Notes: generated by a model not told the origin, from the sequence alone. A stretch of DNA of 64,000 nucleotides from an uncultured bacterium (GCA_963537415.1 CAUTDF010000002.1:12460-76459); one strand, 5' to 3'; positions 13,339 to 29,036 are shown, numbered from the stretch's first letter. Made by a program: numbers and translations.

Positions 13339-14799
13339 TTATGCTGCAATTCTAAGTGTTTTCATCTTTTCTTTTGTAGATGGTTTTTCAAAGAATGCAA
13401 TCGCTTCAGCGAGTTCAGGCTTATTTTTAGCATATTCATGAATATCTACTCCTTTCTGATATGCTTCACAGGCTTGCACAAGAGCCTTAGCGCCTGACTG
13501 AGTTCCCTTTGGATGAGCGTGACATCCTGCACCCATTGTTGTGATGAAATCTACATTTCCCATGAGATCAATGAAAGGTTTGAGAAGAGTTGGATTGAGA
13601 CCTCCAGAGATGATAGGGCAGCAGGTCTTGATTGCTCTCCAGCTATCATCGGTAAGTACTTCTTCATTATCTTCGTCTCTTTGTACGAGAGCTACGAAGT
13701 CTTTATCAGTTTCTGGGATTGTTCCCCAAGACTGTTCAAAGATATGTCCAGTCTTTTTCATATATCTGATACCTTCTGCTGCAGTTACATCTTCTGCTTT
13801 ATCTCCAGCCATTTTTCCAACTCCTGCGGTTCCTGTATGGATTCCAGAAGCTCCAGCGAGTCTTGCAAATTTTGAAAGGACTAAAACTGAGTATCCAATA
13901 GGGTTTTCTGGTCTAGTGAATGCACCATGCCCAGCTCTATGAAAGTGGATAAATACATCTGGATACTTTCTTCTCAAGGTCTGAACAGCCATCCAACCTG
14001 CTGTTGTTCCATCAATTAGGAAGGCATAAGATCCTGGTTCAAATCCTGCGTTTCTAATCATCTCACATCTTTCGATCATGGTATCGTAATCAGCAGCTGA
14101 TACATTGAAAGAGTGCACCTTTTTCTGTCCAGTTTCTTTTACTGCTTTGTCCATAGCTTCCTTTACATGCTTTACCATTTTATCATAAGGACAAAAATCC
14201 TGATTTGCCTGTGGTTCATCATTTTTTACAAAGTCTCCTCCTCATACCCAAAAATCATAACATACCTCAGCGTATTCAGCAGAAGTAAGTCCCATCTTTG
14301 GTTTGATGATGGTTCCGAGGATTGGTCTATTGTAAACATTGAGGTATTTTCTCATGTCTGCTAGGGTATAGCTTGGTCCATCGTATTGTTCAAGCATTGC
14401 AGGTGGAAACCATACATCAAGAATTTTTAATGCTTTTACTTCCTTCATTCCAAAGACATTTCCCGCAATATAGGTGAGGATATTCTGAATATTTCCACCT
14501 CTATCAAAAAGTCTCCATGGGTATGCGATCCAGATAAGTTCTTTTTCGGCATCTACCTTATATACGAGGGCATTCATTTCTTTTGAAAAGGCAGTTTCCG
14601 TCTCAACTAGGAAATTTGTTCCAGTAGAGGATTCAGCTGCAACTTCACAAGCTGCCTGGAGAATGTTCATTGATTTTCCAGGTTGAAAGTGCGCTGCAAC
14701 AAGCATATATTGTCCATTTTTTGGATTTGGGAGATCAAGATTGACATAGGCCAATTGATGATCATTGAGTGTTGGTAAAAGGTCTTTTACGTTTGACAT
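13339..14799 (-). CDS. rbcL: ribulose-1,5-bisphosphate carboxylase/oxygenase large subunit, form II/III-like
   Basis: IIKPKMGL, FWV-G-GGDFVKNDEPQ (TGA at 14242-14244), IHFHRAGHG, SGGLNP, plus an insertion before SGGLNP (EQSWGTIPETDKDFVALVQRDEDNEEVLTDDSW). 486 aa. Consensus promoter upstream. Confidence 0.93.
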
Positions 14800-16372: not shown

Positions 16373-16448
16373 TAAACAAACCACTTATAAAAATAAAAAG
16401 AATTCTGAACAAACCCAAAAGCAAATTGCCTTTTTCGGAATGTCCACG

Positions 16449-16520
16449 TACTCTCGGTAGGAATCGAACCTACATCTAACCCTTAGGACGGGCCTATTCT
16501 ATCCATTGAACTACGAGAGC
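16449..16520 (-). tRNA. tRNA-Arg(CCU)
   Basis: 72-nt cloverleaf folded by hand: acceptor GCTCTCG/CGAGAGT, D stem GTTC/GAAT, anticodon stem GGCCC/GGGTT, loop GTCCTAA, T arm GTAGG-TTCGATT-CCTAC. No encoded CCA. Confidence 0.8.
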
Positions 16521-16653: not shown

Positions 16654-17178
16654 CTATTGTTCTTCTGATTTTGCGTTATTTGTTGGGAAAGTATTGAGTT
16701 CCCATTTTGCTTCTCTATACCAGATAGTACCTTTAACTTTTGCTCGAGGTTTTATTATACTAGTATTTTCTTTGTATCCACGGAATACATACTCTCCACG
16801 TAGTCGCATCGAATTTTTGTCAAAATACCATTTAAAGCTTTCATCAGATAGCTTGAATTTTCTTGTGCGATTACTTCCTATATTGTATTGAAATATTTCC
16901 CATTCTCCGATAAATTTTGGTATATTAGGAGTCGTTATTTCTGTCGGTTCAAACTCTATGATAAGAGCATATTCAACTTCGCCTTTGTGATATTCTGATT
17001 GTGCTTGAATATAGGTATCCCACATAAAGCCGTTTGAAACTATTACTTCTGATTCAGATTTTTGAGTAGAACTTTCTACAGAAGTAGTGTAGTAATTGTT
17101 AATGATTTCTTCCTTTCTGCAAGAGCTAAAAGAAAGACTTAGTGTAAGCATTGTGATGATAATAATATTTCTTTTCAT
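16654..17178 (-). CDS. lipoprotein, unknown function
   Basis: MKRNIIIITMLTLSLSFSSC lipobox. 174 aa, no TGA, TAG stop, own hairpin terminator (16625-16647). Confidence 0.7.
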   Translation of the reverse strand: MKRNIIIITMLTLSLSFSSCRKEEIINNYYTTSVESSTQKSESEVIVSNGFMWDTYIQAQSEYHKGEVEYALIIEFEPTEITTPNIPKFIGEWEIFQYNIGSNRTRKFKLSDESFKWYFDKNSMRLRGEYVFRGYKENTSIIKPRAKVKGTIWYREAKWELNTFPTNNAKSEEQ

Positions 17179-17295: not shown

Positions 17296-17949
17296 TTATT
17301 TTCTTATTTCTACAGATCTTCTTGGATAGGTATTGAATTTTAGATTGTCGTATGTTTCGTATTTTATACTACCATCAATCCATGCATCCTTTAATTTCCA
17401 TTTGTAAGATTTTTCAATGTTTGATAATTTATACTTGTACTCTAGATAGAGAAACGGACTTTCTCCTTCATTCTTTTCTCCTTCTTTTTGGAATAGGTCA
17501 AAAGATCTGTCGTTTGTTGAAAGATCAATTACTTTTTCAATCATATTCTCTGATCTTTCTCCAATGAGTGACCATTGTCCTTTTAATTGGATATCTCTTT
17601 GATCTTCTATTAGATAGTTTTTGAGGTCATTGTTTCCCTTTTTGCTTGGAATTTTTATCTGTATTATCAGATAACCTTGACTCTCATCTAGTGAAGTATA
17701 CCATTTTACACTGTTAGAGATTGTGACTCTAGGTGGGGTGAATGGTATTAGCGGAGCTTGTTGTTCAGGAGTTGGAGGAGGAAGAAGTGTTTCTCCAGAA
17801 TCTTCTTTTTTGCAAGAAGTTGTCAGAGATACTACTACAAGGGTTGCGAGAAACAAAGTTACTGTCTTCACTTTGTTTGTCATGAGTTGGATGATTTTTC
17901 TCATTTTTGTTAAAATTAATTTGATTATATTTTTTGTTAATGATCTCAA
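17296..17949 (-). CDS. lipoprotein, unknown function (distant paralog of 16654-17178)
   Basis: ...TLFLATLVVVSLTTSC lipobox. No TGA, TAA stop. The true start may be an internal ATG (17904 or 17883). C-terminal W..L...(F/Y)P pattern shared with its neighbour. Confidence 0.65.
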   Translation of the reverse strand: MRSLTKNIIKLILTKMRKIIQLMTNKVKTVTLFLATLVVVSLTTSCKKEDSGETLLPPPTPEQQAPLIPFTPPRVTISNSVKWYTSLDESQGYLIIQIKIPSKKGNNDLKNYLIEDQRDIQLKGQWSLIGERSENMIEKVIDLSTNDRSFDLFQKEGEKNEGESPFLYLEYKYKLSNIEKSYKWKLKDAWIDGSIKYETYDNLKFNTYPRRSVEIRK

Positions 17950-19273: not shown

Positions 19274-19407
19274 GTCAATTATAATGCTCTAATCATAAAA
19301 AATAAAAATGTCAAGCTATAAACAAGAGAAACAAAAGTCAGAATTTTATTTTTTTTGTACTTTTATGTATACTTATATGGAGAATTTTTATTTCTATTTT
19401 TGTAGTT

Positions 19408-22400
19408 ATGGTTCAAAATTCTATTGATGTTTTAAAGAGTTTGCAGTCTGAGACTGATAAGATCAAGGCAGATCTTGATGCTTTAAAAAAGCTGACAGAA
19501 AGCAAGGAAAAGGCTCAGAAAAAGCTTGAACTTTACCAATCTATTCAGGTTGTTCAGGAGCTTGCAAAAGTTCAGTTTGAGAGGGAGAAAGATCAAAATG
19601 TAAAAGAGAAGATTGCAGAGGTGCAATCTAAGGTTTCTGATTTTTCAAAAGAGCTTTGAAAACTAGAAGATGTGGTTTCTCAAGGGAAAGATCAAGCGGA
19701 TCAGGATTCTAGGACTATGAATCCAGATAATGGGAAAGATAAAACATCAACTCAGAAAAAAGAGGAGTGAACTTGGGCATCTCTCAAACATTTTACTGGA
19801 GAGCAGCGAGATGCGGTTCGTAGTAAGGAAACTTGGAGTAAAGAACCTGGGAAAAATATTCTTCGTACCGCTGGTTTTGTAGCTACAGGAGTTGGTGCTG
19901 CTGCTCTTGTGTATAAGGGGGTTAAGTGGCTCTTTGGTAGTGATGAGGAAGAAGAAAAGGAGGAAAATAGCAAAGAAGAATCAAAGTCAAAAAAAGAGAA
20001 AAAAGGCTGATTTTGGAATAGTTGGTTTTGAAAGGCTTTGAAATGGGGAGGAATAACTGCTGGTTCAATTTGGGGGATTAGTAAGCTCTGGAACTGGTTT
20101 AATGGCGATGTTGAGCCATCAAGGGGAGCTTCATGAGAAGATAAATACAATGGTTATGATAAGTTTCACTCTAATCCAGAAAATAAGGAAAAGGCTGAAA
20201 ATTATGAGAGGATTGGAGAGAATATCGATGTATTATATTCAACTTTTTATCAAAAGGAACTTGATGCTGGATATCAGGATGAGTTAGAAATGCAGAGAAT
20301 TTCTAATGAAATGAAAAAATCTAATCCTGATGCTAAAAATTATAAGTGAATCATCCCATTTTGTCTAGATAATCAATACGGAAGTGTTGCAGCTATTTTG
20401 GAGCAAAATAGTTCATTTAAGAGCTTGTTAGGAGAGGGATTTGCCAAGATGAAGAATCATATTCTCAGCTGGAGTACCGAGAAACTTGCTGTTTTGGTGG
20501 AATCATTTTTTAGTAAGTTGCCGTCTTGGAAATTGGTTGAAAATATTGAAGGATCAATCGTTGATAAAATTAAGGCGTGGGGAGAGAATAGTGAGGAAGC
20601 TCAGAATGAATTAAAATATTTTTTTAGGCAAGGGATCAGAGTTCAGACTTTCCTTTTTGAAAAGAAGGATCAGCTTGCTGATGCTATCGCGGAGAAAAAA
20701 TCTAAAACCCTTAATATTTCTAAGAAAGAGCTTCTATCTGATAGTGATAATTTTGAAAAATATATTGCAAAGGATCCTGATTATCAGGCTTTTGTCGATG
20801 CTCCAATTGCTGGTGCGATGAATATTCTCAAAAAATATGGGCTTGATTCAGCAGATGTTTCACAAGATCTTAAAGATGAGATTCAGAAACTTGATCAGAG
20901 AAGAGATGAGCTTTTGGATGCTCAGAGTGGGCAATCAGATATTTTGCAAGTAGCATATAATAAAAAGTCTGGAGAAGTATTTAGTCCAGATGAGAAAAAG
21001 AATCTTCAATCAGCATGTGAGAATGTTGCCAAAGATATTGATGAAGAATTGATTGATGCTGTTGAGGAGAGTGTATTAAATATGTATGGAGATCTATTTG
21101 CAACAGATAATGCATGTTTAAGAGAATATATTGAAAAATCTGGTCTTCATGAGATCCTTCGTGGTTCTCAGACTTTTCTCCAGCAACAAAAGCAGCGTTT
21201 GGCGAATTGAGAGGAAATTCCTACAGAGGAACTCAAGGCTACAGCTCAGGTGATGAATGATCTTTTAGCACTCAAAAAGGAATGTTTTCTCGGGCAGATG
21301 ACTATCCAAAAAGATATCGATGAGAACTGAAATATTATCTATAGAGTGCCAGGATTTTTGCTTGGATCAATAAAGAATTTATGAAAGAGTCTCAAACAAG
21401 TGTATAACTGAGAATATCTGTCAGGTTTTTCTACTTTTATGGGTTCGCTTTTGGGAACTGGAATTGTGATTAGTGCCGCAGGAGTGCTTATGAGAAGTAA
21501 TAAAACTGTGATTTTGGGACTTAAAACAGCGGGTGCTCCGTTGACAGTACCGCTTTTTGTGCTGAATAAATTGATGGAAAAAACCGCGATTGGAAGTAGA
21601 CTGAGAAATAAGATGATCTATGGATCTCCAAGCTGGGTACAGTCAAATCTTTTCTTTAGAGGTGAACTTGGACAAGAAAAATTGCTTACAGCACTTGATA
21701 ACTGAGATATTTCTCTTGAAAAAGTTGAGCGTATTTTGAGCAGAAAGAGCCATGCTCCGTTTATGGATGTAGATAAAAGAGAAGAGTGGCTCAAGATGTT
21801 CAATATATCCAAAGATACCAAGAAAGAGGACTATCTTGCTAAAATCTTTGATACCTATGTAACAAGAAAGAACGGGCAACAATATCTTTTTGATCTGAGA
21901 AATAATCATAGAAATCTGTATGATGATCTTGTAAAATACTTTGATCATTCTTCAGATATTAGAGAGGCGGTGAGGACCGGTGTAAGTCCAGATGCACTGC
22001 AGATCGGAGTTGATAAATTCAATAAGGGATTGCCTGTTGATTTTAAAGGTATTCAGCAGCTCTTGGATAGTCCTGAGTATAAGGGACTTGTGCAAAGAAC
22101 TCTTAATTCAAAAGCTTCCTTGTCAAAGCAGTTAAAAAAAACTAGTTCAGATGCTGGTAAGCTAAAAATCAAGCAACAACTTGATTCTTATGATGAACTT
22201 TTAGATATGTTGTCTTGAAAAACGAGTTCAGAAGTTGCTCAAATAGTTGATGTTTTAGATATGTTTTGACCATCTCAAGATGCTGGGCTCTCTGTTGCAG
22301 CGATCAAAAAGTTAAAAACTCTTTCTCGTCTTCAGGATGCGGTAGATGCTAATTGAAATAAACTGGTTTCTAATTTTGATGATATTTTGAAAAATCTTGA

Positions 22401-22584
22401 TACTGATGAATTAGTTAAATTGCTTAACAAAAAAATCGGTTGAGTGCTGGATTCAGAATTAGATAGTTTGATTAAAACTTTCAAAACTATTAAAGCTGAT
22501 GGATTTAAAAAGGCAATAAAAAATGCTGATGAGTTTGCAATTTGTGTGAAATCCCTCTTTAAGTTTGCAGCTAAGATTAGCTAA
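19408..22584 (+). CDS. giant orphan membrane-associated coiled-coil protein A (1058 aa)
   Basis: Single frame joins track ORFs 19408, 20398, 21439 and 21736. Gaps translated by hand contain only TGA (15 in total). Glycine-zipper/hydrophobic segments at about 19858-19935, 20011-20100 and 21436-21570. TAA stop. Confidence 0.75.
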
Positions 22585-22612
22585 TTTTATGTAATGAAAT
22601 AAAAAAAGTCTT

Positions 22613-25600
22613 ATGTCAACTCAGGTAGAAACACTTAAACAGGAAATTTCCGGGTATTATCTTGAGGATTTCAAAAAAGAGCTTTGATGGTTTAAATCAA
22701 TAGCACTTTTACCTATTGAGAACAAAGTGAAGGATATTATTGTTGGGAAAACTGAGCTACCAAAGCACTTTGATGAGGCAAAGGAGTTTGGTTGGTGGAG
22801 ATATATTATTGATTTTGTAGCGCCTTCGACTGCAAAGGAGATTTTCGAATTTATGAAAGCAAAAAGAATAGAGATTGAAAAAAGAAATACTCAAGAGGAA
22901 CTTTCCAGACTTAAAGCTGAAATTCTCTGAGAAGCTCCTGTAGCTGATGGGACAGAAAATATAGATCAGAATTCTGATCTTTCTTGAACTTCACATTCTA
23001 CTTCACATTCCGCAGATCAACAGTCTTGAAATACTTCTTCAGGTGCCGGTCTAGAGGGGCAGACTAGTGGAAGCTCTCCTGAGAGTTCTACAAATACTTT
23101 AGGAAATTCTTGGCATAATATTGGGTATGGAGCTTCAACTTCTATGCTTGGAGTTGGGGGAATTGAGACTGTGGATAGGTTGATTAAGCAGGCTGAGGCT
23201 CGCAATCTGAATAATATTGATGCAGCAAAGATGAAATCAGGAATGCATAATCTTATTGAGAACTTGGAAAATCAGAAAAAAGCGTTGAGCTCTCGTTTGA
23301 GTAAAAGACAAATCAAAAATATTGATAAAACGATTCAAAAGATGAGTTCAGGATTCGAATCTTTGGATGATGAAGGACTCGCGGCATTCAAACAGTGGAA
23401 TAGTCTTAAAGGACAGATTCCAGATGAGTTATTGACTGCTGCTGGAATGCATCCTAGGCAATTTTCAAAGCTTGCTCCCTATGCAGATGAATTGATTGGA
23501 AAAACGCCTGCAGAGATCCGTGAGATTATGAAACTGAAAAAAGTTGATATGGAACTCAGCGATGATGTCCTGAAGCTTTTAGGATCGGCTAAGGATGCTC
23601 AGGAGTTTCAAGCGATGAGTAATGTCCTCTCAAAAGGTAAAAAACTCACGCAGTGGGCAAAAAGTTTGAAAGCTGCTATGATGATTGATGTGGCATTTCT
23701 TGGACTAGATGTGTGGACTTACCTTGAGACGATGGATGAAGCGGAATTGATCGCAAAGGTTAATCAAACAAGGGCAGAGAACAAGAAAAATCAGGCAACT
23801 TTTCAGCTTGCAGTTTGACTTTCTTCTTTTGCGATAGAGGCGATTATTATCTGTGGTGGAATTGGAGCCGTAGGTGGTGCTCCTGGAGTGGTCGTTTGAC
23901 TTGCGGTTTGAGTAGTGACTGCTGCTGTGAGTATTGGAGCTGATGCCTTGTATTTTGATACGCATGATTTTTATCTGCAGAATAGGGAGGATTTCTTGAG
24001 GCAGAGTAGAGCTGAGCTTAGGCAAGCAGTTTTGCAAGGTTTACATAGTCAAAAGTTTTGAAACCAGTCTTGGAATGAGAAAATTGGTGCTCCTGCAGAT
24101 AATATAAAATCTAAAAACCTGGATGAAGCCTTGTATTCGCTTCTTTTTATTGAAGAGATGAGAGATAGTACAGATGAGATGCTTCATTATTATATCGCTT
24201 CTAGGAAGTCTGAGTCAGATTTTTTGAAAGATTTATCACCAGAGCAGGCTGAGGCATTTACTACTTCTCTGAAAAAAATCAAGGAGAAAATTGCTGTTAG
24301 GACTAAATATTTAACTGAGCAGTTTAAAAAGCCGAATCTGATGAATAAGCTAAAAAGCTGAGTAGGTACCTCAGGTTTGATTGATCTGGTCGCAGAGTCT
24401 GCTGGATATTTGAAGATGTTTGAAGCAAAAAAATGGGATGAGAATCTTGATTATGCCAAGAATCTGGCACAGTTTAAATCAGAATTTTTTGCAGATTTTC
24501 CGAGAGAGAAAGTTAAAAAACTTGAGGATTTGAGCAAGAATAATTGTTTCCTTTTTGAGGAACTGATTTCGGTTGCTGATTTTGATTCTTTGATGGCTGA
24601 GGGAGATTCTCCTGAGTATAGTCAGAATTTACACCTTATCAAAAAATATAGGGAATGGCTCAGTCTTGAGCAGAGAAGTGAGGAAGTATCATATTTTTCT
24701 CCTCAGGATACTAATAGAAATATGGCTATGCTTGAAAAGTTGATTGAGAATGGCTTTGATGAGCAGAAATTACAGTTTGAAACTTTGAATAAGAATGAAT
24801 TAGTTGATATTGTTCAGTTTGCTAAAGAGAGGAATTCAGATTTAGAGTATTCTGATGATGTAAGTCAAAATGTAAAGTATCAACTAGCCAAGAGGCTTTA
24901 TGGCTATGAGGGAGCGAATTCAGCGGAGGAGTTGATGGCTTTCTTTTCGGAGGATAAGTGAGGAGTTCATGGTATTTACTATACTAGTGAGTGGAAGATC
25001 AATAGAGATTGGCTGATAGATCGTGCATTATCCCAGCAGCTTCCCAAGGAAATAAAATCAGCGGATGTGCCTGGATTGGTTGATCGTTTGATTAGTGCTA
25101 TTCGTGGCTCAAATATTGATACGAAGACTGAGGCGATTGATCCTTATTTACAACAAGAGTTTGAGAAAGTGCTCAGAGGGATTTTGACTGAGGAGCTTGC
25201 AGCTAGAACGCTAGAGGAGCAAACAAGGGTCAAAAACCAGATTTCTACTTTTGTTAAAAATCATGTCTCTAATGGAGAGTATTTAGAATTGCCATATTAT
25301 CTGATTATTGAGGCGAAAAGAGCTGGACTTGGTGATCTGCAGAGAAAGTTTTTCACTTGGGAAGGAGGAAAAATGAAGATTTGTTCGATGAGTTCAGAAA
25401 TATGAGGTTTGGATGCTTTTGCTGGAGTTGAGAAGCAATATCTAGTATCTGATAGAACAAAATATAGTCCTGAACAGCAGAAGTGTATTGATCGTGTTGA
25501 ACTGGCACATAAAAAGTTAGAGGACTTGAGGGGAGTCGACTGAAGCTTTGGCTTTGAGGATGATTTAGATTTGCCTAGGGAACTTGAGCTTATGATCAGT

Positions 25601-26659
25601 CAGAAATATAAAGATCGAGAGCAAGTTAAGGCAAATCTATTGGTGTATGCTCCGTGAACTGCGGCGTCTTTGACATTGAGGCAGTCAGAGGAATATGCTC
25701 AGTATTTTGAAAATTTATATAAAGGTTTACTTTTGAGAGTGAGTCAGTTTAAGTTGACTAATGATATTGATGATTTTGGAAGTTTTCAAGAAGCAGTTAG
25801 GCTTGGTCAACAGAATATTTTTGATAAAGATGGAAATCTGAATGTAGAAAAGGATTCTCCGTTAGATCAGCAACCAATTAAAGCGTATTATGCGAAGAAG
25901 TTAGAAAGTCTTAAACTTAAGGTCAATGGAGAAGAGAAGTTGCTTAAATCACTTTGGTCCTCTGATAAATCTGAGGAACGTAAGTTGGCTTTGCGCGCTT
26001 CAAATCTTGTGATTGAAAAGATTTTAGAGTGATGGATGCTGAGAAATATTTGAACTACGAAGATGAATATTACTAAAATGAATCTAAATCAGTGACTTTT
26101 CGCTCAAATTGATAGGCGTATTCAGGAGCAGATTTCTTCTCTTGAGATAGTTGCGTATATTGATGATACAAAAATTCCTGAATGTACCTATGAAATCAAA
26201 ACACTTTCTCAGCCTGAGAAAGCGGTTATTGGAGGACTTGGAGAGTTGCAAAATCAGATTGAAAATCAGAAAGATACTGTCGTTTGGCAGGGGAAAAGAT
26301 GAAATATCGAGTATCTACCAAAAAGTTCAGAGATTAAAAGTCGAGGTCATAAGGTAAAATTTGAACAAAAGGCTGATAAATTTATGCTGTCAGGTTTATC
26401 TTTGGAGCTTTCTTTAGATGAGATGCTTTGGCTGGCGAACTTTAGAAATCGATGTGTGTCGAAATATCATGGGCAAAAGGTAGGATTTAAGACGGATTTT
26501 ACAAGCTTAGAGATTTTGAAGTTTAGATTTCAGCCGACGCTCGTTATTGATGGTACAACACTCGTGAAGAGATCAGATTTGGAAGCAAAATGTTGAGCAC
26601 TAAAAGATGATGCAAAGATGCAGAAGTTGGCAGATTGGCTGACAAAAGAGCTTTCATAA
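22613..26659 (+). CDS. giant orphan membrane-associated protein B (1348 aa)
   Basis: Single frame joins track ORFs 22727, 23144, 24131, 24377, 25067, 25670 and 26384. All gaps hand-checked (TGA only). S/T/G-rich linker 22931-23143. Glycine zipper IICGGIGAVGGAPGVVVGLAVGVVTAAVSIGA at about 23819-23945. Confidence 0.75.
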
Positions 26660-26665
26660 TTTTAT

Positions 26666-27757
26666 ATGCTTATATTACAAAGAATGTGAACATTAGATCA
26701 TTTAGGGCAGTTTATTGATGCTGTGAGCTGAGAGGCTAGTTCTACTCAGGAAGAACTTGTTGAACTCAAAACTGACTTAGCAAAAGCTGTTGTTGAAAAG
26801 ATGAAGGAGAAAGATCCGCTTTCTATCGTTGGAATCGCAGATGATATGGTAGTTGATTATCTGGTTTCTGAGTGATTTTTTGATGCGATCAAGGATAATA
26901 TGATGGGGAAGGCGCTTGAGCTAAGTTCTTTACATGGGTTGCTATCAGAGATTAGGGAAAAACTAAAAAAAGTTGATACTAAGGAACAACTTGATCAGCT
27001 TAGAGCTGAGGTTTTGAGTAAAATAGATGAAAAATCTGAAGGAAGCCAAGATTCTGCTTGAGAGACTGAGGAGAATACTTCTCAAGATCAGAAAAATAAA
27101 GAAAATCAGAATTCTTCAGCTTCTTCCACTACTGGGGGAGTTTCTCCACAGGAACATAAGGTGCAATCTCTAGATTCTCATCATGAGATCAAGAATCGAC
27201 CGAGTGAGCAGATTCCATACATTGAGGCGACAATCAAGTTTGCAGAGGGGCAAATTGGAAAGCCATATCAATGGTGAGCTACAGGTCCAAGTGGATTTGA
27301 TTGTTCAGGACTTTGGAATTGGGCGTTTCAGGAGCAGGGGATTAAGTTTGATTCTCGTTTTACGGCAGCGGCTTTTGAAGCCAGTGATGTTAATATTCCA
27401 AAAGAAGAAGTCAGAGTTTGAGATTTTATGTATTGGGATGAACAGCCAGGTAAGAAGAGACATAATCCAATCTATCATATTGAGATGGTCGTTGGACAGC
27501 CGTATCAGGAGAATGGGAAATGGTATGTGAAAACAATCGGCTCTTCAACTGATAAGTGAGTTTTAGATCTCAATGGACAAAAGACTGCTAAGAGTTGAGT
27601 TTGATATAGAGTGAGAGAGATTACTGGATATCGTCATTTTGGGCGTCCACCGTATTATCTGCAGTTGGCTAAGCATCAGGCTTCTGGTGATAGGCAGCAG
27701 CTTGTTGCTTCAGCAGGTAGAGTTTCTCCAGATACAAAGAAGGAACTGGTGGCTTAA
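26666..27757 (+). CDS. NlpC/P60-family cell-wall hydrolase with a helical/disordered N-terminal domain and no signal peptide
   Basis: GKPYQW-G-ATGPSGFDCSGLWNWAF (TGA at 27275-27277), GDFMYW, IYHIEMVVG. 363 aa, whole frame hand-checked. Starts 6 nt after the protein B stop. Confidence 0.85.
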
Positions 27758-27772
27758 TTTTATTTTATATAA

Positions 27773-27806
27773 AAAAAGAAAAGAGAAATCTGATTTCTCT
27801 TTTTTA
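27773..27806. terminator. bidirectional terminator closing the giant-protein operon and miaA
   Basis: A-run, AGAGAAAT ctg ATTTCTCT (27782-27800), T5. Confidence 0.65.
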
Positions 27807-28965: not shown

Positions 28966-29036
28966 CAAGAGCAGTAGGAATCGAACCTACACCTCCAACT
29001 TCGGAGATTGGCGTGCTACCACTGCACTATGCTCTT
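28966..29036 (-). tRNA. tRNA-Arg(CCG)
   Basis: 71-nt cloverleaf: acceptor AAGAGCA/TGCTCTT, D stem GTGC/GCAC, anticodon stem CCAAT/GTTGG, loop CTCCGAA, T arm GTAGG-TTCGATT-CCTAC. Own promoter (29049-29076) and terminator. Confidence 0.8.

Follow-up and report, generated by a model that had tools for sequence, protein, structure and literature searches.

A conserved gene pair of TGA-recoding bacteria is recurrently followed by genes for exchangeable, signal-less peptidoglycan peptidases

We analysed a 64,000-nucleotide stretch of DNA (the window) from a human-mouth SR1 (Absconditabacteria) bacterium in which TGA encodes glycine, and find that three adjacent plus-strand genes, A, B and C, make up a module that recurs across a group of tiny, partly predatory bacteria. 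A and B are members of an undescribed family with many homologues that is specific to bacteria reading TGA as sense, SR1/Absconditabacteria and relatives, and C is a modular peptidoglycan peptidase. Several lines of evidence indicate, as a preliminary description of the locus had proposed, that this is a dedicated module and not a chance neighbourhood: A and B are adjacent wherever DNA upstream of B is available, they are fused in two relatives, enzymes recur after B in 11 of 18 lineages, and B and C share an N-terminal domain that we call the handle.

Translated with table 25, A (19408..22584, 1058 aa), B (22613..26659, 1348 aa) and C (26666..27757, 363 aa) are intact, each with a single terminal stop, and are separated by 28 nt (A-B) and 6 nt (B-C), exactly as first described. 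Table 11 gives 16, 19 and 10 stops, respectively, every internal one being TGA (15, 18 and 9 in frame), and the table-11 ORF list shows the genes only as fragments. The reading of TGA as glycine is supported by one such codon in C that occupies the position of the Gly conserved in the 'PYxWG' motif of NlpC/P60, where aligned solved homologues have G, and by the NCBI table-25 translation P0017, in which the aligned 'KELGW' site reads G. Against strains of 93-97% identity, dN/dS is 0.10 for A, 0.14 for B and 0.06-0.14 for C, indicating real coding genes under purifying selection, which is 5-15 times more relaxed than on MraY, MurLig and MiaA. Upstream of A lies mraY, in the divergent orientation reported earlier (PF00953 was found on a 99%-identical orthologue), and in the window clade the module sits between mraY and the Mur ligase region. 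The gene after C is a convergent miaA. Between them a hairpin (27777..27805, assigned to neither strand) with a 13-bp A/U-rich stem, flanked by A and T runs and with a U run after the stem, has a dG of -11.7 kcal/mol (z = -3.28; 0 of 200 shuffles fold as well); the suggested terminator is thus real and is likely to be bidirectional, and a simple terminator scan overlooked it because its stem is A/U-rich.

Gene A, for which we found 11 full-length homologues, encodes an all-alpha protein whose AF2 model (pLDDT 60.9) is of low confidence in the membrane regions. Its N-terminal coiled-coil-like helices (aa 1-95, 19408..19692; DSSP helices 2-95 in the AF2 model, pLDDT 60-81) form, together with aa 96-231, a module common to a 645-aa paralogue in three lineages (L001, L003 and L022). 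This module includes a Gly-rich hairpin (aa 151-231, 19858..20100) composed of a hydrophobic helix, a charged loop and a Trp/Gly-rich helix, for which the membrane propensity, calibrated on MraY transmembrane helices and soluble controls using a crude hydrophobicity scale, is marginal in the window protein (+4.1); the counterpart of this pair is the sole hydrophobic element in the A part of A-B fusions. The best-conserved part of A is a central helical domain (aa 243-632, 20134..21303) with 42 of 390 columns at least 90% conserved and pLDDT of 70-88 across most of aa 320-630, which is 42-47% identical in relatives, against only ~27-33% for the N- and C-terminal parts of the same proteins. A second hydrophobic segment, rich in Gly and Ala (aa 673-720, 21424..21567), scores +1.4 over aa 677-695, a value that falls among those of MraY transmembrane helices and is better than that of each soluble control, and is lineage-specific. 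All of the hydrophobic segments originally quoted are present; of the hairpins proposed for A, the pair at aa 151-231 is conserved but aa 673-720 is not hydrophobic in distant relatives, the Vampirococcus and L031 fusions. The C-terminal helical domain (aa 755-1058, 21670..22581) bears a weak, short similarity to B aa 195-337 and is missing from the fusions, where the A-family profile ends at about position 695-724.

Relatives of B comprise 25 full-length homologues in a word-indexed search and about 147 clusters in an exhaustive one, and every relative examined contains in-frame TGA. The B handle (aa 1-108, 22613..22936) has 11 of 108 columns at least 93% conserved and is followed by the Ser/Thr/Gly-rich low-complexity linker already recognised in the preliminary description (aa 109-180, 22937..23152), which is without secondary structure (pLDDT 22-33) and is the least conserved region of the family (mean top-residue frequency 0.29). 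The membrane core (aa 345-463, 23645..24001) consists of a conserved acidic/basic juxtamembrane helix, a Gly-zipper helical hairpin (aa 397-447, nt 23801-23953) in which Glu409 is mostly conserved, and a 'YFDxxDFYxQN' motif. The two hairpin helices, the second of which carries a GxxxGxxxG zipper run, score +2.1 and +1.4, values that lie within the span of MraY and are lower than those of all soluble controls. Nowhere is the family better conserved than in the flanks of this hairpin, where 22-31% of columns reach at least 93% conservation. The remaining ~885 aa (24002..26656) form a mostly helical C-terminal domain with a small beta sheet and many invariant polar residues; in the AF2 model, made for a B homologue (pTM 0.53, low confidence in membrane regions), pLDDT is 80-92 over aa 505-790 and 880-970.

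As had been noted, C combines a helical N-terminal domain without a Sec signal and a canonical NlpC/P60 core. Its handle (aa 1-120, 26666..27025) is followed by a low-complexity acidic/Ser/Gln-rich linker, delimited by sequence composition (aa 121-185, 27026..27220), that cannot be aligned among homologues, and by the catalytic domain (27221..27655) with Cys213, His271 and the GFDCSG and YHIEMV motifs. PF00877 matches at 2.3e-13 with 50.5 bits (cutoff 23) across profile positions 1-72 of 105, leaving the region of the third catalytic residue outside. The nearest solved relatives of this head include a C. difficile wall hydrolase, RipC and LytE, and it also matches phage minor-tail/tail PHROGs (1e-16), Tn916-type conjugative hydrolases and the cytoplasmic recycling enzyme YkfC (3h41, E 8e-6). 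The C handle is homologous to B aa 3-108: in the oral clade, where this homology was established, hhalign of the two handles by themselves gives a probability of 95.4% and E 1.7e-8 over 92 columns (reversed control, 1.6%), and a whole-family comparison places the C handle on B columns 4-110. The same domain, with an invariant Y-x-x-x-[DE] motif (DYLVSEG), is conserved in the post-B proteins of L017, L019, L020, L025 and L051 despite their differing catalytic heads; it has no match in Pfam or the PDB, and its conservation is undetectable in third-gene proteins of the most distant loci. The C-terminal tripeptide LVA (27746..27754) is likewise of a type common to third-gene proteins with different heads (LVA, ELA, ILS, LVA, QLA, QVA and RLVA across seven lineages).

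Wherever the available sequence extends upstream of B, an A-like gene directly precedes B. These pairs span at least six different housekeeping neighbourhoods, lying outside the window clade among hisS, gyrA-like, glyS, rpoD, uvrC and infB, and the module occurs singly per locus examined. The two fusions are those of L031 (1789 aa; A profile E 1.5e-14, B profile 6e-38) and Candidatus Vampirococcus lugosii (1723 aa; 7e-34 and 8e-25). The latter, the 'hypothetical protein' VAMP_54_69 / WP_213348997.1, is among the ten largest V. lugosii proteins and was inferred to be membrane-located (PMC8080830). It is a true homologue, with an A-family region at aa 282-783 and a B-family region at aa 1049-1715, yet unlike the window proteins it is fused, lacks the C-terminal domain of A and the B handle, and has no adjoining peptidoglycan enzyme gene.

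In the 11 lineages with enzymes, the most distant included, B is followed after a few to about 50 nt by genes for one or two proteins in which a low-complexity linker joins a helical N-terminal domain to an exchangeable head. NlpC/P60, present in the window clade, L019, L020, L027 and L029, is one of at least five alternatives; the others are YkuD_2 (L030, L032 and L051), Peptidase_M15_4 (L051, in tandem with YkuD_2) and two further Cys/His domains of unassigned family, one in L017/L025 and one in L018. The heads with a family assignment target the stem peptides of peptidoglycan. In L019 and L020, where B identity is 38-39%, the gene immediately after B is a C orthologue. The order B, third gene, convergent miaA is identical in the window, L017, L025 and L030 with different heads, which points to a long-standing chromosomal locus; the catalytic head has been exchanged repeatedly, in situ at one locus. 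The other 7 of 18 lineages, Vampirococcus among them, have no such enzyme beside A-B; C-type genes are thus not universal. Handle-less, signal-less NlpC/P60 and YkuD_2 genes adjoin the L020 module. Signal peptides were found in none of A, B or the third-gene proteins in all lineages examined, an absence that is meaningful because true secreted proteins of the same genomes bear ordinary ones. The module encodes no ATPase or other energy source, and a conserved P-loop is absent from A, B and C.

These observations are compatible with a model, possible but still doubtful, in which A-B forms a membrane platform, anchored by hairpins, where peptidases dock at the cytoplasmic face and from which they are probably passed wallward without Sec. 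A and B would be two subunits of one membrane complex, each using a Gly-rich helical hairpin as its anchor in the cytoplasmic membrane; given such anchors and the lack of signal peptides, the bulk of both proteins, the B handle included, is presumably cytoplasmic and not surface-exposed. The handle homology suggests that C may dock onto this complex through its handle, and a channel-like bundle of the glycine-zipper hairpins of B (and A) might then pass or present the enzyme. The enzyme could thereby reach the wall independently of the Sec pathway, the most conjectural step, and its target might be the cell's own wall or that of a host or prey. NlpC/P60, YkuD and M15 enzymes nearly all act outside the membrane. 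Counting against a platform with export are the missing ATPase, the seven enzyme-less lineages and the undetected handle in the most distant loci, together with the low-confidence AF2 membrane regions and the crude hydrophobicity scale.

A close rival, which we consider rather unlikely, is a cytoplasmic salvage station: A-B would serve as a cytoplasmic scaffold tethered to the membrane, perhaps where uptake occurs, and handle-tagged peptidases would stay in the cytoplasm to dismantle imported stem peptides, yielding diamino acid, D-Glu and D-Ala that this reduced organism cannot make. The universal lack of signal peptides and of an export ATPase suits this arrangement, hairpin anchors would keep both ends of a protein on the same side of the membrane, and M15_4, YkuD_2 and NlpC/P60 map onto the three bonds cut to dismantle a stem pentapeptide, the first two joined in L051. 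The handle-less enzymes of L020, unexplained by handle-dependent export, better fit a cytoplasmic role, and the YkfC match and the third-gene tails, which we take to resemble cytoplasmic ClpXP degrons, point the same way. However, a cytoplasmic enzyme with the YkuD fold would, as far as we know, be without precedent, the solved structures that match the C head best are wall hydrolases, the need for two >1000-residue proteins and long disordered tethers is hard to see, and a metabolic scaffold would be expected to change more slowly than this module does. It is unlikely that A-B is instead a lineage-specific cytoskeletal, divisome or membrane-organising scaffold that makes no direct physical contact with C, and that the wall enzymes are merely co-transcribed because both serve envelope growth; the position near mraY and the Mur ligase region, the enzyme-less lineages and the EzrA-type-like length and helicity of A and B would agree with this, but B/C handle homology and leaderless enzymes recurring right after B in distant lineages, although their heads are replaced, are hard to explain without a functional link, and elsewhere the pair lies among unrelated housekeeping genes.

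Quite unlikely, too, is a host/prey penetration device, in which exported A and B, like the ejection proteins of phages or the translocators of type III systems, would insert their hairpins into the prey envelope and C would locally open the prey wall, creating a feeding or attachment pore. Documented epibiotic predators occur in the lineage to which the family is restricted, among them Vampirococcus with its large fused protein, divergence is fast (B identity is 40%, against 78-80% for MiaA), the Gly/Ala-rich bilobed hairpin resembles those of pore formers, and wall-degrading heads are swapped on a constant N-terminal domain, as is typical of effector families. Yet there is no apparent export route for >1000-residue proteins without signal peptides, C is followed by miaA and not by an immunity gene, the single module per locus has a housekeeping context, similarity to T3SS translocon and colicin models is at noise level, and fold comparison with internal virion and tape-measure proteins of phages gave nothing significant. 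Under the most improbable reading, the module is a mobile-element remnant: the tail of a prophage, with a tape-measure protein and a tail lysin, or a conjugation module of Gram-positive type, with a VirB6/TcpH-like protein and a VirB1-like hydrolase. The phage-tail and conjugative matches of C and the resemblance of large helical proteins with Gly-rich hydrophobic stretches to tape-measure proteins would favour it, but A and B have no Pfam and no significant PHROG match (TMP and VirB6/TrbL included), and none in NCBIfam, PADLOC, PDB sequences or folds; 33 distant B members lack any Pfam domain, and Foldseek found no match for A with its AF2 model or for B against the PDB and BFVD. By tblastn no A-B match occurs in 50,697 phage and 72,556 plasmid records, IMG/VR contigs hold no relative, Foldseek against viral models gives nothing below E 0.07 (TM-scores 0.13 or less), capsid, terminase, integrase, VirB4 and VirD4 genes are absent from every neighbourhood examined, and the B-third gene-miaA order is kept in four lineages. 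With no phage, plasmid or conjugation link in sequence, fold or neighbourhood, this origin is effectively refuted. The proteins initially called orphans thus belong to no described family, but the label fails in that both have many homologues.

Known systems each share part of this design. Like phage tape-measure and T7-type internal virion (ejection) proteins, which often have an associated wall-hydrolase domain and head the Foldseek list non-significantly, A and B are very long and helical with Gly-rich hydrophobic segments, but they lack phage context and homologues in phage or viral contigs. Holin-endolysin pairs and holin-dependent 'type 10' secretion (Serratia ChiW/ChiX, Salmonella TtsA) also place a leaderless hydrolase beside membrane-protein genes and take it to the wall by a non-Sec route, such as C might follow; holins, however, are small (about 70-150 aa) and phage-derived, whereas A and B exceed 1000 aa, consist mostly of soluble-looking helical domains, and occur in every strain without phage relatives. 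LXG toxins of type VIIb secretion, which are polymorphic effectors, similarly have a constant ~110-aa helical N-terminal domain, a linker, exchangeable heads, no signal peptide and a Y-x-x-x-[DE] motif. In contrast to these, the proteins here have no LXG/WXG100 Pfam match, EssC/EccC ATPase and immunity genes are absent from all neighbourhoods, and the identified heads are all peptidoglycan peptidases, unlike the broad LXG repertoire. We also compared the FtsEX-dependent hydrolases PcsB (Streptococcus), CwlO (Bacillus), RipC (Mycobacterium/Corynebacterium) and EnvC (E. coli). These undergo secretion and meet FtsX on the outer side of the membrane, whereas C has no Sec signal peptide, their coiled coils have no sequence or fold relation to the handle, and A and B lack an ABC ATPase or FtsX signature. 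Both arrangements nevertheless combine a membrane complex with a hydrolase made of a helical N-terminal adaptor and a catalytic head, the C head matches RipC in the FtsEX-RipC structure 8idc (E 3e-9), and the heads of FtsEX partners vary by lineage (CHAP, NlpC/P60, LytM), as do those of the C-type proteins.

The window has a G+C content of 35.8% and carries in-frame TGA codons in almost every long gene. Genes A (19408-22584, 1058 aa), B (22613-26659, 1348 aa) and C (26666-27757, 363 aa), all on the + strand, are open only under table 25, in which TGA encodes glycine; under table 11 they contain 16, 19 and 10 stops, respectively, every internal one a TGA, and because of these interruptions a mechanical ORF list holds only fragments of the three. 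As all 8.3 kb appears non-coding under table 11, table-25 translation is essential. Two observations support the glycine assignment: one TGA codon of C occupies the conserved Gly position in the NlpC/P60 'PYxWG' motif, and the NCBI table-25 translation of a homologue shows Gly at the window's TGA site. The intergenic gaps are 28 nt (A-B) and 6 nt (B-C), the upstream neighbour of A is the divergent mraY, and a 13-bp A/U-rich hairpin with a U tail (27777-27805; dG -11.7 kcal/mol, z -3.3) folds between C and the convergent miaA, confirming the arrangement of three table-25 genes and a terminator put forward in the preliminary description.

Comparison of the window with strains of 93-97% protein identity gave dN/dS values of 0.10 for A, 0.14 for B and 0.06-0.14 for C, as against 0.01 for MraY, 0.02 for a Mur ligase and 0.03 for MiaA. 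A, B and C are real genes under purifying selection, with constraint 5-15 times more relaxed than in the neighbouring genes; across species, B is ~40% and A 26-33% identical, compared to 78-80% for MiaA. A T-rich tract upstream of A (19309-19407) differs in length between strains and in some relatives puts an upstream ATG in frame, with the result that callers annotate A as 1091 rather than 1058 aa. We regard the 33-aa hydrophobic N-terminal extension so created as a spurious product of the variable poly-T tract because it is not in frame in the window and is missing from all other family members.

Loci near-identical to the window are found in many human oral metagenome assemblies, and the same locus is present in GTDB SR1 genomes. 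A word-indexed search recovered 25 full-length homologues of B and 11 of A, and an exhaustive HMMER scan of 1.84 billion representatives, queried with a single B sequence rather than a family alignment, placed the relatives of B in 147 clusters, ~40 of them full length, with identity down to 25%. Given so many homologues, the term 'orphan' first applied to A and B is wrong in its literal sense and holds only as 'undescribed family'. In-frame TGA codons occur in all seven B-family genes checked (11-80 codons each; L017, L023 and the distant loci L027-L032), and on this basis the family looks confined to TGA-recoded CPR bacteria.

The earlier statement that A and B belong to no known family was borne out by profile and structure searches alike. 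Neither A, B nor distant relatives of B had a significant hit in Pfam, PHROGs, NCBIfam or PADLOC; this holds for 33 of 33 distant B members in Pfam and for five A/B family members against the PADLOC anti-phage defence models. The best PHROGs values for A and B (E 0.004-0.085) are not significant, and the sole domain match in scans of the three proteins is the NlpC/P60 domain of C. PDB sequence profile searches with A, B, wide-B and handle alignments returned only noise (colicin Ib at 1e-3, prefoldin at 0.035, Med21 at 0.05, and designed helical bundles). AF2 models of moderate confidence, obtained for A through its database homologue P0026 and for B through residues 1-1018 of its homologue P0017, gave nothing under E 0.07 in Foldseek searches of PDB and BFVD. 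No relatives were found by tblastn in 50,697 phage and 72,556 plasmid records or in scans of IMG/VR contigs, and literature searches yielded no description of the family. By homology, the A-B module is outside every described family. We rate its components and their combination as categorically new; the function we infer.

Several lines of evidence indicate that A and B form an obligate pair, a conclusion that is firmly supported. Table-25 gene calls at every locus analysed put an A-like gene immediately 5' of B wherever upstream DNA is present, and the flanks of the pair vary (mraY/miaA; hisS, a gyrA-like gene and glyS; ruvX and infB; rpoD and uvrC; others). In two relatives, A and B are fused into one protein of which the first half is matched by the A profile and the second half by the B profile: a 1789-aa protein at locus L031 and the 1723-aa WP_213348997.1 of Candidatus Vampirococcus lugosii. 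The latter is among the ten largest proteins of this epibiotic predator, where it was listed as a 'hypothetical protein' (PMC8080830). Both fusions are without the C-terminal domain of A and the first 220-330 residues of B; these parts, which bear a short, weak similarity to each other, may hold the split subunits together. The similarity between A and B is too short and weak (hhalign 59% and 74%, 26-130 columns) for us to regard them as paralogues. A 645-aa paralogue found in some lineages does share the first 230 residues of A, and genes of this kind (645-663 aa) lie directly upstream of A in lineages that are without a third gene (L001 4839-6776; L003 4785-6776; L022 2839-4776), with 33-55% identity to A over the N-terminal module and a Gly-rich hydrophobic segment of their own.

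The homologue models indicate that A and B are almost wholly helical; neither has a signal peptide, and no P-loop is conserved in either family. On a crude biological hydrophobicity scale calibrated on MraY, whose TM helices score from -2.3 to +4.8, no soluble control from the same window falls under +4.2; the bilobed segment of B (aa 397-447) scores +2.1 and +1.4, and residues 677-695 and 151-169 of A score +1.4 and +4.1, respectively. A single hairpin is present in B, as against the five or more transmembrane helices of a polytopic VirB6-like protein, and the only hydrophobic elements kept in the fusions are this hairpin and the equivalent of the first Gly-rich pair of A (aa 151-231). The first helix of the B hairpin contains a Glu conserved in most members and the second forms a GxxxGxxxG zipper. 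In the whole of B, conservation is highest in the polar stretches on either side of the hairpin ('DxAxxGxDV...EAELIAKVN..R..NK.NQA' on the N-terminal side, 'YFDxxDFYxQNxxDF' on the C-terminal side), where 22-31% of columns reach at least 93% conservation vs 1-10% elsewhere. Long N-terminal domains without a signal peptide are not normally exported and, as each anchor is a hairpin and the long N-terminal domains are leaderless, we infer that the bulk of A and B, including the B N-terminus, is probably cytoplasmic.

C carries a PF00877 domain at aa 198-271 (50.5 bits against a cutoff of 23, E 2.3e-13) and matches 21 solved NlpC/P60 structures at E < 1e-3, with Cys213 (GFDCSG) and His271 (YHIEMV) aligned with the catalytic Cys motif and the His of the solved homologues. 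The match spans profile positions 1-72 of 105, and the sequence diverges around the third catalytic residue: ~12 residues are inserted after His271, and the site where a third polar residue is expected reads TIGSS. Neither C nor any third-gene homologue has a hydrophobic N-terminal segment. Signal-less proteins directly follow B in 11 of 18 distinct B lineages, sharing a plan in which a helical N-terminal domain leads through a low-complexity linker to a catalytic head. The head is NlpC/P60 in the window clade, L019, L020, L027 and L029, YkuD_2 in L030, L032 and L051, and Peptidase_M15_4 in L051, which has two third genes in tandem; at least three peptidoglycan stem-peptide peptidase folds are swapped on the handle domain. 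Two further types of head, one in L017 and L025 and one in L018, have no family match and no link to NlpC/P60, YkuD, PDB or Pfam; that these Cys/His domains may also be peptidases is only our reading of their Cys...His...Asp pattern. Although their heads differ, the window, L017, L025 and L030 all have B followed by the third gene and then a convergent miaA, indicating that the head was exchanged in place, and the interchangeability of the heads is firmly supported. The interpretation in the preliminary description is partly supported: the module is real, whereas an envelope-spanning or host-directed role would be conjecture. In the other seven lineages, no third-gene enzyme adjoins B: there B is followed by a 76-aa gene (L001/L022, L021), a 129-aa lipoprotein gene (L010, L024), infB (L007) or no co-oriented gene up to the contig end (L023), or is part of the fusion (L031).

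The Vampirococcus fusion locus (L052, JAEDAM010000027.1, 735-15198), outside the 18 lineages counted, has no adjacent wall-enzyme gene. It is a run of seven co-oriented genes, none with a Pfam domain, in which three leaderless acidic/helical proteins (332, 543 and 617 aa) precede the fusion and three with classic signal peptides (431, 349 and 714 aa) follow it. An oral SR1 genome (L020, 6996-8142 and 11972-12994) has four signal-less wall-peptidase genes around the module: one joins the handle to NlpC/P60, two encode a head alone, YkuD_2 (190 aa) or NlpC/P60 (180 aa), and the product of the fourth, of 340 aa, has NlpC/P60 behind a different helical N-terminal domain. Third-gene proteins also end alike despite their different heads (LVA, ELA, ILS, LVA, QLA, QVA and RLVA, in the window at 27746-27754 and in L017, L018, L019, L020, L025 and L051); such tails resemble ssrA-type or tail-specific-protease recognition ends. 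The window contains no tmRNA gene.

What connects A-B with these enzymes is a ~110-residue domain common to one giant protein and the leaderless family. The N-terminal 120 residues of C are conserved across oral-clade proteins with different heads and, compared as domains alone, align with the first 110 residues of B at an hhalign probability of 95.4% (E 1.7e-8, 92 columns; reversed control 1.6%); an independent whole-family comparison places the C handle on B columns 4-110. A 'T.EEL..LKAEIL' helix closes the domain in both proteins and leads into a disordered linker. At the level of sequence profiles, the handle of C is homologous to the B N-terminus in the oral clade; it is borderline in the L029 protein and undetectable in third-gene proteins of the distant loci L027, L030, L032 and L018, and it has no Pfam or PDB relative. 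The A N-terminus was rejected as a third copy (hhalign 0.7-9.6%). Y65-x-x-x-[DE]69 is conserved in the handle and could match the YxxxD/E signature that type VII secretion substrates carry behind a helical hairpin or, being so short, be due to chance.

Among known systems, the logic of the module resembles that of FtsEX with PcsB, CwlO or RipC, likewise a membrane complex with an adaptor-headed hydrolase and lineage-specific heads. FtsEX systems, however, have their own ABC proteins and a Sec-exported hydrolase, both absent here: A and B have no Pfam or NCBIfam match to the FtsE ATPase or FtsX permease, and C and its homologues start without a hydrophobic segment. Holin-dependent export also handles leaderless wall enzymes, but A and B are no holins, and polymorphic effector families have a similar domain architecture but bring secretion ATPases and immunity genes that the module is without. 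The handle has no Pfam match to type VII LXG/WXG100 proteins, and neither the 64-kb table-25 ORF map nor the loci contain an FtsK-type (EssC/EccC) ATPase. The colicin Ib match falls on a non-hydrophobic helical stretch of A, as noise, and the best T3SS translocator value (SseD, E 0.087) is also noise, with no Foldseek match for A or B. A phage tape-measure protein or tail lysin is not indicated by Pfam, PHROGs or BFVD for A or B, nor by viral-contig homologues, and the surroundings of A-B are housekeeping genes with no phage structural genes. VirB4/VirD4 Pfam families occur in no called neighbour, and B has no plasmid homologues that would suggest a VirB6/TcpH-like protein of conjugative type IV secretion. 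Phage or conjugation neighbours, which the preliminary description held would speak against its reading, were absent from the neighbourhoods examined, and we consider a mobile-element origin essentially excluded.

It is firmly supported that A-B is encoded with, and has a domain in common with, a family of leaderless enzymes that, where the head is identified, act on peptidoglycan stem peptides. The module bears on how SR1/Absconditabacteria and relatives reshape their own cell wall or penetrate that of a host, and what is at stake is either a new way of bringing wall enzymes to or across the membrane or the cytoplasmic theft of wall building blocks. The handle presumably docks the leaderless enzymes on the cytoplasmic face of an A-B complex. 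Beyond this step, we tentatively favour the former: the glycine-zipper hairpins might bundle into a channel-like structure by which the enzyme is passed to, or presented at, the wall. Several features would fit a cytoplasmic salvage station, a close rival that we consider possible, if doubtful. Dismantling a stem pentapeptide requires cleavage of three bonds, which match the three identified heads; handle-less, leaderless NlpC/P60 and YkuD_2 genes adjoin the module in L020, the module encodes no energy source, and the LVA-like tails recall cytoplasmic degrons. Passage to the wall is preferred over salvage because NlpC/P60, YkuD and M15 enzymes are, to our knowledge, almost always active outside the membrane, and we know of no cytoplasmic role for a leaderless YkuD enzyme.

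That A-B is a scaffold unrelated to the enzymes is unlikely, since the homology of the handle speaks against it. Among SR1/Absconditabacteria and relatives are disease-linked species of the human mouth and the only CPR predators on record, and a translocon directed at prey would suit this biology but would be without any export route, making it quite improbable; we know of no dedicated secretion system past Sec and type IV pili assigned to these bacteria. More ambitiously, A-B and its handle-tagged cargo might constitute a new Sec-independent presentation or translocation apparatus, unique to TGA-recoded CPR including Vampirococcus, that brings wall-peptide-cutting enzymes to the host/prey contact zone as part of the long-sought attachment and feeding machinery of these epibionts, which we judge a long shot. 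The conserved, lineage-restricted module itself comprises two giant membrane proteins kept as one unit, adjacent or fused.

Beyond mraY, two predicted lipoprotein genes on the - strand vary between strains. The 202-aa protein (17296-17904) is 99.5-100% identical in L004-L006 and L028 vs ~48% in L013, L014, L016 and L026, where the flanking genes are 98-99% identical and the 174-aa protein (16654-17178) has no counterpart; the pair resembles a cassette of allelic surface proteins. A 486-aa RuBisCO large-subunit homologue (13339-14799, - strand; PF02788/PF00016 on a near-identical orthologue), 4.6 kb upstream of A, has one TGA codon vs 9-18 in A, B and C. No tRNA genes occur in the 64 kb apart from two for tRNA-Arg, at 16448-16520 and at 28966-29036 (- strand), with CCT and CCG anticodons.
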